Position numbers and translations under genes: made by a program. Of a stretch of DNA of 64,000 bases, positions 3,462 through 17,468 are shown one piece after another. The DNA is taken from the NCBI GenBank assembly GCA_036307825.1, contig JAXJWW010000104.1, positions 10,678 to 74,677 of the forward strand. Reading direction: 5' to 3'. Every line of letters begins with the position of its first letter. The first letter of the stretch is position 1. The DNA is from Treponemataceae bacterium. Its GTDB lineage: Bacteria; Spirochaetota; Spirochaetia; Treponematales; Treponemataceae. Under the pieces are notes generated by a model, which searched no databases, was not told where the DNA came from, and saw nothing but the letters and a program-made list of their open reading frames with translations.

Positions 3462-4010
3462 ATGTTAAAGAAAATTTTATTTGTAATTGTAATTTCTATT
3501 TCATTTTTTTCTTGTGAATTTCTCTTAGAACCCAATGTACCAATAAACTATATCAATTACACAATCATAGACTGCCCAACTGAAATTGTTTCTCGTGCTT
3601 TCAAATTTGCAGAACTTTACGAAAAAGAAAATACAGTTTACGAATGGGGCGGTGAAGATCCTTTACGAAACACTATCGGAATTGATTGCTCTGGTCTTGT
3701 GATTATGTGTTACAAATATGCTATGGTAGATACTTCATATAAATTGATAAATGAAGATATGACTGCTCAAAACATTCACGATTACGCTTCTACAAAAAAA
3801 TCCGTAAATTCCGTTCAAAAAGGCGATTTAGTTTTTATCGGCACAGAAGGCAGTAAAGAAATTACACACATCGGATTTTTTGAAAAATACGAAAATAACA
3901 AAGTTTATATACTAGATAGTTCCTCAGACTCAAACGGAGTTCATTACAACACATATCCAGTCGATTCTAAAAAAATCAAAGGATATGGCAGAATGAAACT
4001 TAAGTATTAA
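3462..4010 (+). CDS. NlpC/P60 family cell-wall peptidase (lipoprotein)
   Basis: Catalytic Cys context GIDCSGLV and His context ITHIGFF. N-terminal signal with FFSC lipobox. Confidence 0.75.
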   Translation: MLKKILFVIVISISFFSCEFLLEPNVPINYINYTIIDCPTEIVSRAFKFAELYEKENTVYEWGGEDPLRNTIGIDCSGLVIMCYKYAMVDTSYKLINEDMTAQNIHDYASTKKSVNSVQKGDLVFIGTEGSKEITHIGFFEKYENNKVYILDSSSDSNGVHYNTYPVDSKKIKGYGRMKLKY

Positions 4011-7871: not shown

Positions 7872-8912
7872 CTATAATAAATTACAAAGTTCGTCAACTT
7901 GTTTTTGTGTTGTTGCCCAACTTGTTGCAAATCGAACAACAGTATGAGTTTTATCAAATTTTTGCCAGTAACTAAATGAAACAGATTTTTTCAATTCTTC
8001 CATTTTAGAATTTTCTAACACAATAAATTTTTGGTTAGTTGGTGAATTTATAAAAATTCTATAACCTTTTTCGATAAAAGTTTTTTCAATTTTATCTGCC
8101 ATCAAAATTGCGTTGTCAGAAATTTTAAAATATAAATCATCTGAAAAAAGTGTGTCAAATTGCAAACCTAAAACCCAACCTTTTGCAAGCAAGGCGCCAC
8201 TTTGTTTTATCAAGGTAAAAAAATGAGGAACTAAATTTTCTTGAGTAAAAACAACTGCTTCACCAAACATGGCACCAACTTTTGTTCCGCCTATATAAAA
8301 TGCGTGAGCATATTTTGCAATATCTTTTAAAGTTACATTTTCATTTTGATTTTTACTTGCAGAAATTCCGTAACCTAATCTTGCACCATCAATGTATAAT
8401 TTCAAATTGTATTGGTCGCAAATTTTTCTAATTGATTTTAATTCTTCCAAAGAATAAATTGTTCCAAATTCAGTTGGAAAAGAAATATACACAACACCCG
8501 GTTTTACAATGTGTGCGTTATTTTCATCATCATAATAATTTTGCAAATATAAAAGTAAATCCTTACAAGAAATTTTTCCGTCGTAGTTTGGAAGCATCGT
8601 AACTTTATGACCTTTAGCTTCGATTGCACCTGCTTCATGTTCGGTGATATGTCCTGTGTTTGCAGAAATCACAGTTTCATATTTATTTAAAAGCGCGTCC
8701 AAAACTGTAGCATTAGTTTGAGTTCCTCCAACTAAAAAATAAATTTCTGCCTTTGGACAATCACAAGCCTTACGGATTTTTTCTTTTGCACTTTCACAAA
8801 TTTCATCACAACCATATCCTGTCATTTTTTCAAAATTGATTTTTTGCAATCTTTCCAAAATTAAAGGATGACAACCTTCCATATAATCGCTATCAAATCG
8901 TAAAATACTCAT
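7872..8912 (-). CDS. threonine aldolase / beta-eliminating lyase family PLP enzyme
   Basis: 346 aa. N-terminal FDSDYMEGCHP and GGTKVGAMFGEA (PLP-Lys region) resemble low-specificity threonine aldolases. Confidence 0.6.
   Translation of the reverse strand: MSILRFDSDYMEGCHPLILERLQKINFEKMTGYGCDEICESAKEKIRKACDCPKAEIYFLVGGTQTNATVLDALLNKYETVISANTGHITEHEAGAIEAKGHKVTMLPNYDGKISCKDLLLYLQNYYDDENNAHIVKPGVVYISFPTEFGTIYSLEELKSIRKICDQYNLKLYIDGARLGYGISASKNQNENVTLKDIAKYAHAFYIGGTKVGAMFGEAVVFTQENLVPHFFTLIKQSGALLAKGWVLGLQFDTLFSDDLYFKISDNAILMADKIEKTFIEKGYRIFINSPTNQKFIVLENSKMEELKKSVSFSYWQKFDKTHTVVRFATSWATTQKQVDELCNLL
8882..8912. repeat. direct repeat copy 1 (first 31 nt of the aldolase-like gene)
   Basis: tataatcGctatcaaatcgtaaAAtaCtcat matches 9322-9352 at 27 of 31 positions. 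Confidence 0.85.
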
Positions 8913-8918
8913 GCTGTA

Positions 8919-8947
8919 ATTTTATATTGTTGTTTGATTTATAGCAA
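8919..8947 (-). promoter_or_regulatory. sigma70-like promoter, candidate leaderless start of the aldolase-like gene
   Basis: TTGCTA-17-TAAAAT on the minus strand. 6-nt gap to ATG 8912. No SD. Confidence 0.5.
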
Positions 8948-8973
8948 GAAGAAAGTAAAAATGCAAAATGCAC

Positions 8974-9002
8974 TTTACAAAATAATAGTATTTATTTATA
9001 AT
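8974..9002 (+). promoter_or_regulatory. near-consensus promoter for the small toxin-like ORF
   Basis: TTTACA-17-TATAAT. Predicted TSS about 9009-9011, immediately before the left inverted repeat. Confidence 0.5.
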
Positions 9003-9011
9003 TGATTTATT

Positions 9012-9028
9012 GGAAATGCCTAAGTTCA
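9012..9028. repeat. left arm of 17-nt inverted repeat
   Basis: ggaaatgccTaagttca is the reverse complement of 9258-9274 with 1 mismatch. Confidence 0.85.
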
Positions 9029-9086
9029 GGCGGTGTCTCCCAACTCAATCAGCATTATGCTGAAATAAAGACTAGGGAGGCTAACT

Positions 9087-9188
9087 ATGACTTGTGAAAT
9101 GATTATTAGTTTAGTAACTTGTGTTGCAACTATAATCGGAACAGTTGTAGCTCTGCTTTCTTACCTAAAAAAGAAAGATAAAGAGTAA
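9087..9188 (+). CDS. 33-aa hydrophobic peptide, candidate type I toxin
   Basis: MTCEMIISLVTCVATIIGTVVALLSYLKKKDKE: one TM helix plus a Lys-rich tail. AGGGAGG SD 6 nt upstream. Own promoter and terminator. Below the ORF-track size cutoff. Confidence 0.5.
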   Translation: MTCEMIISLVTCVATIIGTVVALLSYLKKKDKE

Positions 9189-9195
9189 AAAAATA

Positions 9196-9231
9196 AAACC
9201 GCCATAGTCCTCGAAACTCTTGGCGGTTTTT
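9196..9231. terminator. bidirectional terminator hairpin
   Basis: AAACCGCCA / TGGCGGTTT stem. T5 follows on plus, T7-rich tract on minus. Confidence 0.65.
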
Positions 9232-9257
9232 AACCAACAACGTGGAGATGACCAAAT

Positions 9258-9274
9258 TGAACTTTGGCATTTCC
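9258..9274. repeat. right arm of 17-nt inverted repeat
   Basis: tgaacttTggcatttcc followed by tcttttttt. Pairs with 9012-9028. Confidence 0.85.
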
Positions 9275-9283
9275 TCTTTTTTT

Positions 9284-9312
9284 AATATACACCTACTTGC
9301 GATTTAATGCAA
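9284..9312 (-). promoter_or_regulatory. sigma70-like promoter reading toward the toxin-like ORF
   Basis: TTGCAT-17-TATATT on the minus strand. Confidence 0.45.
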
Positions 9313-9321
9313 GTCTATTTT

Positions 9322-9352
9322 TATAATCACTATCAAATCGTAATTTATTCAT
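9322..9352. repeat. direct repeat copy 2 (orphan duplicate of the aldolase-like gene 5' end)
   Basis: tataatcActatcaaatcgtaaTTtaTtcat. Minus-strand reading gives MNKLRFDSDY versus MSILRFDSDY of the intact gene. Overlaps the stop of the 9345 gene. Confidence 0.85.
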
Positions 9353-9905
9353 ACTTTGCATTTATTTCATTTATAGCATCTGCCATAATTTTTTCAGCAT
9401 CAAATCCATCTACATCAAGCATCTGTGCAAAAATCAATTCTGTTTCTTTAATTCCAAAATAATCTTTACATAGACTTTCAATATAGTTATAAGAAAAATC
9501 TGGAATAAATTTTCCACCAGCAGTTGCAACATAATAAAGTTTTTTTGCCTTACACAATCCAACAGGTTTTCCATTTTCACCAAATTTTGTAACAAGACCT
9601 GTAACATAAATATTCTCGATAAAAATTTTTAATATTGCAGGAAATGATAAATCCCAATGAGGTGCAGAAATTACAATCTCATCAGCAGTTGAAAATAAAT
9701 TTGCCAACTTAAAAATTTCATCAGAAAAATTTTCTTGATTAACAAGTTCCGTTCGTTTTTCAATCATGGCTTCAGAATAAGGAGATAAGTTTTCATCTTC
9801 TAATTTTATTTCAATAATTTCATCATTAAATTTACTAAGTAAAACTTTTGCAAGCTTATCGGTTCTAGAAATTTTTCTAACACAAGCATTTACATATAAA
9901 ATCAT
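9345..9905 (-). CDS. flavodoxin-like fold NAD(P)H-dependent oxidoreductase
   Basis: About 186 aa. MILYVNACVR...ISAPHWDLSFPAILK layout resembles FMN-dependent NAD(P)H dehydrogenase/azoreductase-like proteins. ATG 9905 is preferred over the track TTG 9911. Confidence 0.55.
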   Translation of the reverse strand: MILYVNACVRKISRTDKLAKVLLSKFNDEIIEIKLEDENLSPYSEAMIEKRTELVNQENFSDEIFKLANLFSTADEIVISAPHWDLSFPAILKIFIENIYVTGLVTKFGENGKPVGLCKAKKLYYVATAGGKFIPDFSYNYIESLCKDYFGIKETELIFAQMLDVDGFDAEKIMADAINEINAKYE

Positions 9906-9911
9906 TTTCAA

Positions 9912-9920
9912 ATTATATCA
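9912..9920 (-). promoter_or_regulatory. extended -10 promoter, candidate leaderless start
   Basis: TGaTATAAT on the minus strand. 6-nt gap to ATG 9905. Confidence 0.5.
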
Positions 9921-9976
9921 CATTTTTTGTAATTAAACTATTTATTTCAACAAAAATATGATGTCTAAAAAATTTT

Positions 9977-10047
9977 GTCATGCTGAACTTATTTCAGCAT
10001 ATACTACATATAGTAAATAGATTCTAAAACAAATTCGAATTGATACA
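9977..10047. repeat. palindromic REP/MITE-like intergenic element, copy 1 (degenerate)
   Basis: tgtcatgctgaac..ttcagcat hairpin, then agtaaatagattctaaaacaaattcgaattgataca. Related to 55551-55639. Confidence 0.55.
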
Positions 10048-10061
10048 TCTATTTAATTTAA

Positions 10062-10097
10062 AACAAAAAAGAGATTTCTCATAAAGAAAAATCTCTT
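10062..10097 (-). terminator. rho-independent terminator of rtcB
   Basis: AAGAGATTT / AAATCTCTT stem followed by a T-run in the minus orientation. Confidence 0.7.
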
Positions 10098-10119
10098 AAA
10101 AAATTTTTATAAAAAAAAT

Positions 10120-11349
10120 TTATTCGGCCGCCTTAAAATTGTAAATCGGTTTAATGATTTTTACAATTTCGGCAGTTTCACCAATATTTGCAACAATATC
10201 ATCCATTGTTTTGTATGCCATAGGAGCTTCGTCTAAAGTGTCTTTGTTCACCGTACTTGACCAAATTCCAAACATCTCTGATTTAAATTCTTCTAAATCA
10301 AGAGTTTTTTTAGCTTTCATTCGGCTCATAACACGGCCTGCTCCATGTGGAGCGGAACAATTCCAATCTTCGTTGCCCTTACCAATACAAACTAAACTTC
10401 CGTCTCTCATATTGATAGGAATTAAAAGTTTTTCACCTTTTTTGGCACTTACGGCCCCTTTTCGCAAAATCATTGCACCCTCAGTTTCTGTATCGATATA
10501 ATTATGAATCGTTGTAAACTGTTCAATTATATCTTCTTGCTTTATATGAAGCCCGATAGAAATTGATTCAATCATTGCCTTTCTGTTTACCTTGGCAAAG
10601 TGTTGCATAATTTTCATATCGTTGATGTAATCTTCAAAAAGTTCACCGCTAACATAAGCCAAATCTTTTGGAACAGAAGTGATAACTTGAGATTTTAACT
10701 CTGCAAGTTTTTCTTCAATTTCAGATTCTCTTCCTTCAGCTTTTAAAGTTGCAATTAATTTTTCGCAATCCTTTTTTGAATTTTGATTTAATTGCAACCA
10801 TGCTTGTTCTTGATAATAATTTGCAATTTCAAGTCCAGCGTGACGACTTCCAGAGTGAACAACGATATATAAATTTCCTTCATCATCTCGGTCAGCTTCG
10901 ATAAAGTGATTTCCACCGCCCAAAGTTCCAACACTAAGCCATGCTCGGTATTTATCATATTTTCCGCGAACCTTGTCAAAGTTTACAGTTTCACCCAGAG
11001 CATGTGGGAACTTTCGAATATCCCGACCACAAGGAATATTTTTGCGAATGATTTTATCAAGTTTTGCTGGATCAAAATTTTTGCTAACTTCACTATCAGC
11101 ACGAATTACTAAAGTTTCCATTCCGCAACCGATATCAACGCCAACAAGGTTAGGAACAATTTTGTCGCCAATGGTCATTGTAGTCCCGATTGTGCAACCT
11201 GCTCCAGCGTGAACATCTGGCATAAGACGAATTTTTTGTCCAGAAGTAAATTCTTGGTCGCATAAAGTTTTTATTTGCTCTAAAGATTTTTCATCAATTA
11301 CATCTGTAAAAATTTTTGCTGTATTATAAATTCCTTCAACAGTTTTCAT
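10120..11349 (-). CDS. rtcB: RNA 3'-phosphate/2',3'-cyclic phosphate ligase RtcB
   Basis: GVDIGCGM, GGGNHFIE, HSGSRHAG and PHGAGR metal/GMP-His motifs. 409 aa. GGAGG SD. Confidence 0.9.
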   Translation of the reverse strand: MKTVEGIYNTAKIFTDVIDEKSLEQIKTLCDQEFTSGQKIRLMPDVHAGAGCTIGTTMTIGDKIVPNLVGVDIGCGMETLVIRADSEVSKNFDPAKLDKIIRKNIPCGRDIRKFPHALGETVNFDKVRGKYDKYRAWLSVGTLGGGNHFIEADRDDEGNLYIVVHSGSRHAGLEIANYYQEQAWLQLNQNSKKDCEKLIATLKAEGRESEIEEKLAELKSQVITSVPKDLAYVSGELFEDYINDMKIMQHFAKVNRKAMIESISIGLHIKQEDIIEQFTTIHNYIDTETEGAMILRKGAVSAKKGEKLLIPINMRDGSLVCIGKGNEDWNCSAPHGAGRVMSRMKAKKTLDLEEFKSEMFGIWSSTVNKDTLDEAPMAYKTMDDIVANIGETAEIVKIIKPIYNFKAAE

Positions 11350-16046: not shown

Positions 16047-17468
16047 TTAAAGATTATAATACTTTTCAAACTCAGCAGGAGTTGGAATTGCATTCATTTC
16101 GCGACATTCTGCACGTTTTGTTGCGATGAACTTTGTTAAAAGTTCTTCTGGGAAAACTCCACCAGCTGTTAAGTAGTCGTGGTCTTTTTCCAAAGCATCC
16201 AAGGCTTGATCCAAAGAAGTTGGAAGACTTGTCAACTTTGCTTTTTCTTCATCAGAAAGAGTGTACAAGTTCATATCATAAGGTCCCCAACCATTTGCGT
16301 GTGGATCAATTTTGTTTTTAATTCCGTCGATACCAGCCATCAAAATTGCTGCGTAACAGAAATATGGATTACAAGTTGCATCAGGGTTACGAATTTCAAA
16401 TCGGCGCATTTTTGGTGATTTTGCGTAAGCAGGAATACGAATAACAGCACTTCTGTTTGAAGTTGCATAACCAACTGTAACAGGGGCTTCAAATCCAGGC
16501 ACAAGTCGTTTGAAAGAGTTTGTACTTGGGTTTGTGATTGCACATAAAGAAGCAATATGTTTTAAAAGACCACCCATAAAATAATGAGCAGTTTGGCTAA
16601 GATTAGAATATCCGTTATCGTCAGAGAAAACTGGTTCTCCATCTTTCAATAAAAGCATATGAACATGCATACCGCTTCCAGCTTCGCCCATAACAGGTTT
16701 TGGCATAAAAGTTGCAGTTTTGCCATATTTTGCAGCAGTGTTTCTGATAATATATTTAATCATCATTGAAGCATCTGCCATTTTTGACATTTTTCCAAGT
16801 TGAGGTTCAATTTCAAATTGACCAGCAGCACCAACTTCTGGGTGATGATATTTTACATTGATTCCCATTTCTTCCATTAACAAACACATTTCGCTACGAC
16901 ATTCATAACTTGCATCAAAAGGTTTTGCCACATGATATGCTTTTTGTTTTGGAATAACACATCCCATTCCTTCAACATCGCTGTTCCAATGAGCTTGATT
17001 TACATCAATTTCCATTCCGATTGCATTTGGAGCAACTTTCCAGCCCACATTGTCAAATAGATAAAATTCAAATTCTGGCAAAATCAACATTTCATCAGCA
17101 ATTCCAGAATCTTGCATATATTTTTCAGCAGCTAAAACAATGTTTCGAGGATACTGAGCTAAAGGTCGATTTTCCTTGTCGATAATCATTGCGTTTCCAG
17201 TCATAGAAAGAGTTGGAATTTCACAGAAAGGATCAATACAAGCAGTGTCTGGATCTGGAATAAAAACCATATCACTTTTTTCAACTACTGCGTATCCGTA
17301 GTTTGAAGCGTCAAACCCAATTCCACTTTTCATTGTATCTTCAGAAAAGTTTTTTGCAGGAATTGTTACATGGCGGAACTGACCGTTGATATCCACCATC
17401 TTAAAATCAACCATTTTAATATCATTTTCTTCAATCATTTTGATAATATCTTTTACAGATTTAGACAT
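16047..17468 (-). CDS. glnA: glutamine synthetase, type I
   Basis: 473 aa. KPVMGEAGSGMHVHMLL and NPDATCNPY blocks. GGAGG SD. Confidence 0.9.
   Translation of the reverse strand: MSKSVKDIIKMIEENDIKMVDFKMVDINGQFRHVTIPAKNFSEDTMKSGIGFDASNYGYAVVEKSDMVFIPDPDTACIDPFCEIPTLSMTGNAMIIDKENRPLAQYPRNIVLAAEKYMQDSGIADEMLILPEFEFYLFDNVGWKVAPNAIGMEIDVNQAHWNSDVEGMGCVIPKQKAYHVAKPFDASYECRSEMCLLMEEMGINVKYHHPEVGAAGQFEIEPQLGKMSKMADASMMIKYIIRNTAAKYGKTATFMPKPVMGEAGSGMHVHMLLLKDGEPVFSDDNGYSNLSQTAHYFMGGLLKHIASLCAITNPSTNSFKRLVPGFEAPVTVGYATSNRSAVIRIPAYAKSPKMRRFEIRNPDATCNPYFCYAAILMAGIDGIKNKIDPHANGWGPYDMNLYTLSDEEKAKLTSLPTSLDQALDALEKDHDYLTAGGVFPEELLTKFIATKRAECREMNAIPTPAEFEKYYNL

Follow-up and report, generated by a model that had tools for sequence, protein, structure and literature searches.

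The 64,000-nt stretch of contig JAXJWW010000104.1 analysed here (the window, whose numbering is used for all coordinates) contains, at positions 8973–9315, a 343-bp cassette in which a gene for a small membrane peptide converges with a predicted gene for an antisense RNA, the two meeting at a shared hairpin terminator. The cassette is flanked by genes for a Beta_elim_lyase aldolase and a Flavodoxin_2 protein. It is likely to be a self-contained type I toxin-antitoxin cassette with the TxpA/RatA layout, as judged from its conserved sequence elements and predicted RNA folds. A toxin mRNA with a masked Shine-Dalgarno (SD) sequence and a convergent antisense RNA sharing its terminator had been proposed from the letters of this stretch alone (the original prediction), and this proposal is supported by the conservation of the elements concerned across genomes.

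The promoter of the peptide mRNA, P1 (8974–9002, plus strand), has the sequence TTTACA-17-TATAAT and matches the consensus at 11 of 12 positions, with the start of transcription expected at about 9009–9012. Its score is the joint best within the 2.5 kb scanned, an equal 11/12 site being present on the minus strand at 8158–8129, and the position of both hexamers is constant across all homologous cassettes. The open reading frame (ORF) at 9087–9188 on the plus strand starts with ATG and encodes 33 amino acids, MTCEMIISLVTCVATIIGTVVALLSYLKKKDKE, the presumed toxin. The peptide has a single transmembrane (TM) helix, with about 22 hydrophobic residues between an acidic N-terminus and a Lys-rich KKKDKE tail. 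The SD sequence AGGGAGG (9074–9080) is placed 6 nt 5′ of the ATG and is paired in the predicted folds, and neither a conserved ORF nor a mok-like leader ORF is found in the leader of about 75 nt. The near-consensus P1, the SD and the ORF with its one TM helix and Lys-rich tail are all as the original prediction had described them.

The mRNA 5′ domain (9012–9041, plus strand) is the best-conserved block of the cassette, with 22 nt identical between the window and the units found in Treponema. It contains one arm of an inverted repeat (IR-L, GGAAAUGCCUAAGUUCA), a small GCCU/AGGC hairpin and an anti-SD, GUCUCCC (9035–9041). In the minimum free energy (MFE) fold this anti-SD, with CTCCC at 9037–9041, pairs with GGGAGGC around a small hairpin, and the middle leader hairpin UCAGC-AUUAU-GCUGA (9049–9063) is enclosed by the anti-SD:SD helix. 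The fold of the whole mRNA has a z-score of −5.8. Nearly all of the 18 leaders folded show the same succession of a GCCU/AGGC hairpin followed by an anti-SD:SD helix enclosing the middle hairpin. The helix is predicted at 5–10 bp in nearly all leaders and the CUCCC and GGAGG motifs are kept in all, GGAGG being common to 15 of 15 leaders when read from their alignment. The middle hairpin is found in every leader folded alone, and its stem occurs in five compensated versions (CAGC/GCUG, CUAG/CUAG, CCGGC/GUCGG, CCAAC/GUUGG and UCUGG/CCGGA). The predicted fold and the retention of both motifs agree with the earlier suggestion that CTCCC could pair with the SD.

The shared terminator T1 (9195–9231) folds as a hairpin in both orientations and has U-runs on each side, UUUUU on the plus strand (9227–9231) and UUUUAUUUUUUUACUC on the minus strand (9198..9187), which makes it a bidirectional terminator with a strong U-run for the minus-strand RNA and a weaker one for the plus-strand RNA. 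The element GAGTAAAAAA is conserved even in cassettes where the stop codon lies upstream of it, indicating that it is kept for the terminator of the antisense RNA and not for the reading frame. The mRNA may extend beyond T1. A possible second terminator, T2 (9243–9283, plus strand), is formed by a hairpin that mirrors the 5′ stem-loop of the antisense RNA and is followed directly by UCUUUUUUU (9275–9283). In the plus-strand fold the mirror hairpin abuts the U-run, and a T-rich run is present 3′ of the second repeat arm in all homologues. As the plus-strand U-run of T1 is weak in most homologues and the mirror hairpin is directly followed by a T-run, the mRNA may end at T2, at about 9283.

The antisense promoter P2 (9284–9312, minus strand) has the sequence TTGCAT-17-TATATT, of which 8 of 12 positions (3 of 6 in TTGCAT) match the consensus, placing it below the threshold of the promoter scan. 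The site is present as originally quoted, and its position and hexamers are conserved in every homologue, but on the sequence of the window copy its description as a good promoter was an overstatement. It is nearer to consensus elsewhere, with TTGACG/TTGACA-17-TATAGT in the Treponema units and TTGACG-17-TATATT in the pig-gut units, several of which also have an extended −10 TG.

The predicted antisense (antitoxin) RNA is about 90 nt long (9188–9277, minus strand), overlaps the stop codon of the ORF and the 3′ end of the mRNA, and has a 5′-terminal stem-loop (SL1) that is joined by a variable unpaired linker, about 14 nt long, to the terminator hairpin and U-run. Its fold, a 5′ hairpin plus terminator, has a z-score of −3.1. 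When folded singly, the antisense RNAs of 16 of 16 homologues adopt the same two-hairpin shape with compensatory changes, and RNAalifold yields the same consensus, with Y:R covariation seen as C-G in 10 sequences, U-A in four and U-G in two. SL1 (9244–9274, minus strand; GGA.AUG.CCAAAG...UUUGG.UCA.UCUCC) repeats the mRNA 5′ domain in inverted form and contains the second repeat arm, IR-R. Its consensus across the folded homologues is an imperfect stem-loop, GGA.AYG.CCAAG-loop-UUUGG.UCR.UCUCC. Among 17 sequences from three subfamilies, 95.7% of the SL1 cells are paired, compared with 31–57% when the partners are slid; three pairs are altered on both sides, and the covariation score exceeds that of 500 out of 500 shuffles. 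The 26 G.U cells of SL1 would become A.C mismatches on the opposite strand, which indicates that the hairpin is selected on the minus-strand RNA. Both the hairpin, placed earlier at 9196–9229 with a better U-tract in the minus orientation, and the predicted antisense RNA of about 90 nt over the ORF stop and mRNA 3′ end are thus supported at the sequence level, the latter by this covariation together with the conserved P2 and U-run.

The 343-bp unit recurs in rumen and pig-gut metagenomes and in metagenome-assembled genomes (MAGs) of Treponema/Spirochaetales, in at least seven genomic contexts and often in tandem arrays of 3–5. Its recurrence, entire, in many unrelated contigs puts the arrangement far beyond chance. 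Similarity among the copies spans 8973–9315 and ends there, showing that the unit runs exactly from the −35 hexamer of P1 to that of P2. Among metagenome contigs, which by their names come from buffalo and ruminant gut, the identical window peptide is called as a gene in 29 index blocks, and most of the contigs concerned share the window synteny Beta_elim_lyase / peptide / Flavodoxin_2 / RtcB. Two other contexts of the identical peptide are a group of three tandem cassettes between a helix-turn-helix (HTH) gene and glnA (L124) and a single cassette after an ABC ATPase gene (L129).

The copies in MAGs were recovered by a scan of genome contigs (596 Gb) with the 17-mer repeat at 16 specified bases. 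Most of its matches were due to chance, and six of 120 loci were real (L010, L030, L054, L055, L060 and L104). The first five of these, in Treponema/Spirochaetales MAGs, carry 1–5 cassettes each, with a period of about 440 bp where they are in tandem, and their cassettes have about 71–74% DNA identity to that of the window with the order of parts unchanged. More diverged cassettes are found on pig-gut contigs (L137–L144) in at least four contexts, including four-cassette arrays that mix two peptide types, and one variant peptide is present on 432 contigs from animal guts. Within the 64-kb window itself a check for paralogous copies gave none besides the one cassette, and no related peptide was found elsewhere in it.

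The recurrence bears on the possibility that the P2 transcript is not an antitoxin but a 5′ leader or attenuator of the aldolase gene, with the hairpin as a regulated terminator. The aldolase gene (7872–8912, minus strand) is indeed downstream of P2 on the same strand, and insertion of the cassette cut it from its upstream gene. However, P2, SL1 and the terminator travel with the peptide gene to places where that strand carries no gene downstream of them (L124, L129 and the arrays of L010, L030 and L137), no Rfam riboswitch or leader family is matched, and the aldolase start is immediately preceded by a promoter-like site distinct from P2 (8947..8919). Given that the cassette recurs without the aldolase gene, the leader function was rejected and is regarded as most improbable.

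The window copy is flanked by two direct-repeat copies of about 60 nt that are about 80% identical and 432–440 bp apart. The left copy (8882–8946) contains the true start of the aldolase gene and a decayed 3′ end of the flavodoxin-like gene, while in the right copy (9322–9378) it is the 3′ end of the flavodoxin-like gene that is the true one and the aldolase start, MNKLRFDSDYKN (9352..9317, minus strand), that is decayed; this decayed start overlaps the stop of the Flavodoxin_2 gene. The repeat thus duplicates the junction of the 3′ end of the Flavodoxin_2 gene with the start of the Beta_elim_lyase gene, and the decayed ends indicate that the cassette was inserted between two formerly overlapping genes of one operon, leaving an insertion footprint of unusual length. 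No empty site was found, exact look-ups of both flanking proteins giving the same organism only.

Such a footprint, together with the 17-nt inverted repeat described below, the many genomic contexts and the location of one pig-gut array beside a DUF772 transposase-like gene (L138, 4350–4718), could be expected of a non-autonomous element resembling a miniature inverted-repeat transposable element, in which the inverted repeats would serve as ends bound by a transposase, the direct repeat would have arisen by target duplication and the ORF would be incidental. Yet the repeats are not the ends of the conserved unit 8973–9315, which includes both promoters outside them; this location of the promoters led to rejection of the element. 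In addition, the repeats show compensatory changes of the RNA type with G.U pairs on one strand, purifying selection acts on the ORF, and a 60-nt duplication at 80% identity is unlike a transposase-type target duplication. A transposable element of this kind is accordingly given very little credence.

Conservation was read from an alignment of 16 cassettes and from separate alignments of the parts. The conserved blocks are the P1 hexamers, CTCCC, GGAGG, GAGTAAAAAA, the GCCGCC/GGCGGC stem and the P2 hexamers. The leader TTGGAAATGCCTAAGTTCAGGCGG is conserved more strongly than the ORF, and the antisense 5′ domain GTGGAGAYGACCAAA..GGGCRTTTCC is conserved as well. Close copies, which differ by about 11% of their DNA overall, encode an identical peptide, all of their 1–4 ORF differences being synonymous (pN/pS 0), and distant ORF pairs have pN/pS of 0.3–0.5. 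By these comparisons the ORF is under purifying selection at homologous loci; its lack of conservation there had been named in the original prediction as a finding that would speak against a toxin gene.

An exhaustive HMMER search with the peptide gave 32 clusters (50% identity) at E<1e-3. The consensus of the window type (type A), drawn from the hits, is MTCE.(V/I)IALVTC(V/I)AT.I.TVIAVLSYLK.K.E, and the pattern is also found as MT.E.(V/I)I.LVTC(V/I)AT..(G/T)TVIA.LSYLK.K..E. Two further types occupy the same RNA scaffold, type B (MTKYEIISLAISLALLILSLLSYLKM or MTLYEILSLAINLAILILTALSYLKNRKS) and type C (MKAKIISVIFSVVVGIATIVSAIFAVLSFLYK), and the types are mixed inside single arrays. The presence of differing peptides in one conserved RNA scaffold suggests that toxins may be exchanged as modules. 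In the sources, type A peptides were found under no name other than ‘hypothetical protein’. Many of the database entries recovered (P0001–P0032) are ‘proteins’ of 50–100 amino acids made up of the peptide plus an in-frame extension into the leader or a read-through of TAA. They appear to be gene calls under other genetic codes, and they inflate and blur the peptide family in protein databases.

A link to the TxpA family is provided by the type B peptides. TxpA carries the Hol_Tox domain PF16935, for which the gathering threshold is 23.3 bits. Type B sisters from the same arrays reach 16.4–16.6 bits against this model (E 0.007), below the threshold; a match was obtained for 8 of 12 type B peptides tested, with a best E of 1e-5, and in a scan of 23 peptides the three that matched were all of type B or C. 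Relatives found with the 40-aa upstream-extended ORF of a sister peptide as query include a 76%-identical protein with a precomputed PF16935 assignment (P0119) and a type B copy from Treponema rectale named ‘Holin-like toxin’ in UniRef (P0102), an annotation given to members of the TxpA family (PMC2887945). Alignment of types A and B by hhalign gives a probability of 88% (E 3e-6), a value to be read in light of short, low-complexity peptides. The chain of remote homology from type A to type B to TxpA is suggestive, and on these comparisons the cassette is probably a distant relative of TxpA/RatA, although the window peptide itself falls outside the family by the formal PF16935 test. Other matches from PADLOC, PHROGs and NCBIfam are weak and of a generic TM kind (2TM_IV, E 6e-4; retron_Ec48_2TM, E 0.029; phrog_9488, E 0.006 for type B).

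Several results weigh against a toxin-antitoxin function. The window peptide has no match in Pfam, NCBIfam or toxin models, so that the profile searches against small-toxin families suggested in the original prediction, Fst among them, gave no match for it. Hol_Tox is absent at E<=10 from the window peptide and 18 other type A peptides of the 23 scanned. No Rfam family, RatA and the par RNAs included, is matched at E<=10 in 8000–10500 or at the gathering score in the 64-kb window. P2 is a weak consensus match in the window copy. Neither plasmids nor phages gave a blastn match to the cassette and the exact leader pattern is absent from viral contigs, so a plasmid or phage vehicle finds no support. 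With its VTCVAT and LSYLK motifs the peptide is more constrained in sequence than a generic pore-former needs to be, a constraint that might reflect a specific membrane function other than toxicity. Among the members of such families some, YhzE-2 for instance, proved non-toxic when tested (PMC2887945).

These last two points lead to an alternative in which the ORF encodes a small membrane protein with a regulatory cis-antisense RNA, an accessory subunit or modulator of a membrane complex whose level is tuned by the RNA. The strong position-specific motifs (VTCVAT and TVIA.LSYLK) at a pN/pS of about 0.3 would be natural for such a protein, and YhzE-2 offers a parallel, being a predicted type I toxin with an antisense RNA that is non-toxic in its native host (PMC2887945). 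The distribution of the cassette fits it less well. The units are interchangeable within arrays, with differing peptides in one RNA scaffold. Their spread across phyla is patchy, the insertion contexts are many and there is no conserved partner gene, which is the pattern of selfish or defence-type modules; the sister peptide, moreover, resembles the TxpA family. A non-toxic regulated membrane protein is thus considered unlikely, although less so than either the aldolase leader or the transposable element.

For the type I cassette, transcription of both RNAs, toxicity of the peptide, its repression and the involvement of a nuclease can be inferred to follow the scheme below. Transcription from P1 would give an mRNA for the membrane peptide that is poorly translated as made, its SD being masked in cis by the GUCUCCC:GGGAGGC helix. 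P2 would direct convergent synthesis of the structured antisense RNA of about 90 nt, ending at the shared hairpin. With an mRNA that stops at T1, no fewer than about 45 nt of this RNA would be complementary to the mRNA 3′ end; with one that continues to T2, all 90 nt would be. Pairing would probably start at the terminator loops and form a duplex, leading to cleavage and decay of the mRNA (by RNase III in the Bacillus paradigms) and keeping the peptide off. A fall in the antisense RNA would allow the peptide to be made and to damage the membrane.

A further feature of the cassette is the duplicated 5′ domain. The 17-nt inverted repeat GGAAATGCCTAAGTTCA (9012–9028 and 9258–9274, 16 of 17 positions) has each of its arms 9 nt 3′ of the −10 hexamer of P1 or P2, and so both RNAs begin with the same sequence. 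The homology covers about the first 30 nt of both, the mRNA reading GGAAAUGCCUAAGUUCAGGCGGUGUCUCC and the antisense RNA GGAAAUGCCAAAGUUCAAUUUGGUCAUCUCC. Between subfamilies the arms change jointly, and within any one cassette both have the same core, AAGUUCA, GAACA or GAUUCU. As the repeat is inverted on the DNA, the two RNAs cannot pair through it. Such a covarying inverted 5′ domain is a new structural feature, and no inverted repeat is present between the 5′ regions of the mRNA and RatA at the canonical txpA/ratA locus (L146).

When the mRNA is folded to T2, a 5′–3′ panhandle is the MFE structure in 9 of 9 cassettes and is 10–20 kcal/mol better than folds restricted to local pairs. In this predicted panhandle the first 17–30 nt or so of the mRNA are paired with about the last 30. 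The full-length mRNA, if it reads past T1 to T2, could thus have its ends paired, which would protect both of them and keep the mRNA inert. The antisense RNA, acting as a leader mimic, would take the leader's place on the 3′ arm, forming a long duplex for cleavage and bringing about decay of the mRNA. That the antitoxin RNA is a sequence mimic of the toxin mRNA leader that opens the panhandle is proposed with considerable doubt and from modelled structures. Panhandle and leader mimicry are nonetheless the preferred account of the duplicated 5′ domain, albeit a speculative one. If it holds, the joint change of the inverted copies would reflect selection for a three-way competition. To our knowledge, leader-mimic logic of an antitoxin has not been described for any type I system, and the duplicated domain may point to a form of target control by antitoxin RNAs that is new. 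Two alternatives were considered, a need of both RNAs for the same 5′-terminal stem-loop, for stability or for a common protein partner, and gene conversion between the arms. Masking of the SD in trans by the antisense UCUCC was also examined and found no support, as the sites given by RNAduplex are inconsistent and changes in the variable base beside UCUCC track its SL1 partner, not the base that follows the SD.

The original prediction had compared the locus with fst/RNAII, txpA/ratA and bsrG/SR4. The latter two comparisons are apt, whereas that with fst applies to the layout only. The likeness to txpA/RatA includes a small single-TM peptide with a basic tail and, in the type B sisters, an N-terminus of the form M-(S/T)-x-(Y/F)-E-x-(L/I)-(S/M)-L. 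The TxpA family also includes E. faecalis EF3263, which has a 3′ antisense RNA of about 110 nt. RatA is 222 nt long, whereas the antisense RNA predicted for the window is about 90 nt and has no Rfam match. The type A peptide of the window further differs in its Cys-containing VTCVAT core and in having no PF16935 match, and the cassettes differ in that they also occur in Treponema (Spirochaetota) and as arrays of mixed peptide types. The txpA/RatA system is likewise described as having convergent genes, RNAs that pair at their 3′ ends across the terminator and a ribosome-binding site (RBS) masked by a short GC-rich helix (PMC6562991; PMC2887945). At the txpA locus of Bacillus sp. FSL M7-1004 (L146, 640–1200), which lies within a phage tail gene block, an anti-SD TCCTCC is present upstream of GGGAGG; the anti-SD is thus placed before the SD, as it is in the window cassette.

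In txpA, bsrG and bsrE the RBS is sequestered by 4–5 GC pairs and the RNAs pair at their 3′ ends (PMC6562991). First contact through the terminator loops and cleavage by RNase III are documented for txpA/RatA, bsrG/SR4 and bsrE/SR5 (PMC6562991). The cassette resembles bsrG/SR4 and bsrE/SR5 in its 3′-overlapping convergent RNAs, sequestered SD and a terminator loop suited to first contact (PMC6562991). It differs from them in that no peptide or RNA homology is detected and no prophage context is seen for the window copy. SR4 is also able to alter the fold of the bsrG mRNA around the SD from a distance.

The fst RNA I/RNA II pair is similar to the cassette in the convergence of transcription on one bidirectional terminator, as at 9195–9231. 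The par locus, like the cassette, has a second element common to the 5′ regions of both RNAs and an SD masked by 5′ structure. Its 5′ repeats are direct on the DNA and the RNAs are complementary there, whereas the repeats of the window are inverted and both RNAs carry the same 5′ sequence. In addition, the window peptide lacks the Fst motif and has no match to the Fst models of Pfam or NCBIfam. With neither the peptide motif nor the repeat orientation of the Fst/par group, the cassette is, on sequence grounds, not a member of it. A loop-loop contact is also known for fst/RNAII (PMC6562991).

Full-length hok mRNA is held in an fbi/tac fold-back, and the panhandle predicted for an mRNA ending at T2 is similar to it. 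Despite this resemblance the cassette is not a member of the hok/sok group, as its antisense gene is placed at the 3′ end instead of the 5′ end, it has no mok-like leader ORF and its peptide is unrelated. In sprA1/SprA1AS from Staphylococcus aureus the genes are convergent and overlap at their 3′ ends, and the SD and start region are the targets of trans pairing by the antisense 5′ domain. A non-overlapping 5′ domain of the antisense RNA could matter in both systems, but the antisense UCUCC of the window is buried in SL1 and covaries with its SL1 partner. The ldr, ibs and zor loci form tandem arrays, as do the cassettes.

The kind of system found here is already known, while its 5′ duplication is new, as is the possible second terminator of the mRNA. 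The cassettes make up an unannotated RNA-plus-peptide family, without a Pfam or Rfam model, that is common in animal-gut metagenomes. Literature searches found no paper on this cassette family or on type I toxins in Treponema. According to a 2025 paper, the known type I systems are confined to Proteobacteria, Firmicutes and Tenericutes (PMC12390103), and the copies in Treponema, including the cultured T. rectale, would add Spirochaetota to this list.

The window has a GC content of 31%, and its GlnA (16047–17468, minus strand) is 88% identical to MAG proteins of Lachnospiraceae, Clostridiales and Oscillospiraceae; no tRNA genes were found across the 64 kb. With the window read as that of an uncultured gut bacterium of the Clostridia, a placement that rests on this GlnA likeness, the near-identity of its leader to those of the Treponema units argues for horizontal spread of the cassette across two phyla. 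If this is true, the near-identical scaffold in Clostridia and Treponema would represent horizontal spread of a type I system into Spirochaetota. The pattern conflicts with an earlier general conclusion, as given in the abstract of PMC2887945, that such loci are not horizontally spread.

Several of the copies have unusual structures or neighbours. Besides the L138 array, two others have neighbours of a mobile-element or defence type. In L030 (2228–3097) the neighbour is a 289-aa ORF that, judged by eye from the sequence, resembles a phage antirepressor, and in L140 (2163–3728 and 7220–7477) the neighbours are a PDDEXK_9/AAA-ATPase-like gene and a RelB-like gene. The sixth locus from the 17-mer scan (L104, 1–70) has a P1 region identical to that of the L030 cassettes and contains P1 and the first 22 nt of the leader followed by unrelated sequence. 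It is either a truncated cassette or a case of P1 and the 5′ hairpin being reused for another transcript. In one unit of the four-cassette array of L137 an insertion of about 85 nt (3715–3800) separates the antisense 5′ domain from its promoter, possibly a very small mobile insert by which the antitoxin gene of this unit is inactivated. At a locus on the minus strand of metagenome contig JAEIGA010187205.1 (L132, from about 2316) the peptide gene is missing, and P1 with the part of the leader that extends to the middle hairpin is joined to a 5′-truncated RelE/HigB-like ORF (…GKRGGVRVIYYYKVNRSQILLLFAYPKN…), which looks like a recombination junction of a type I with a type II toxin locus.

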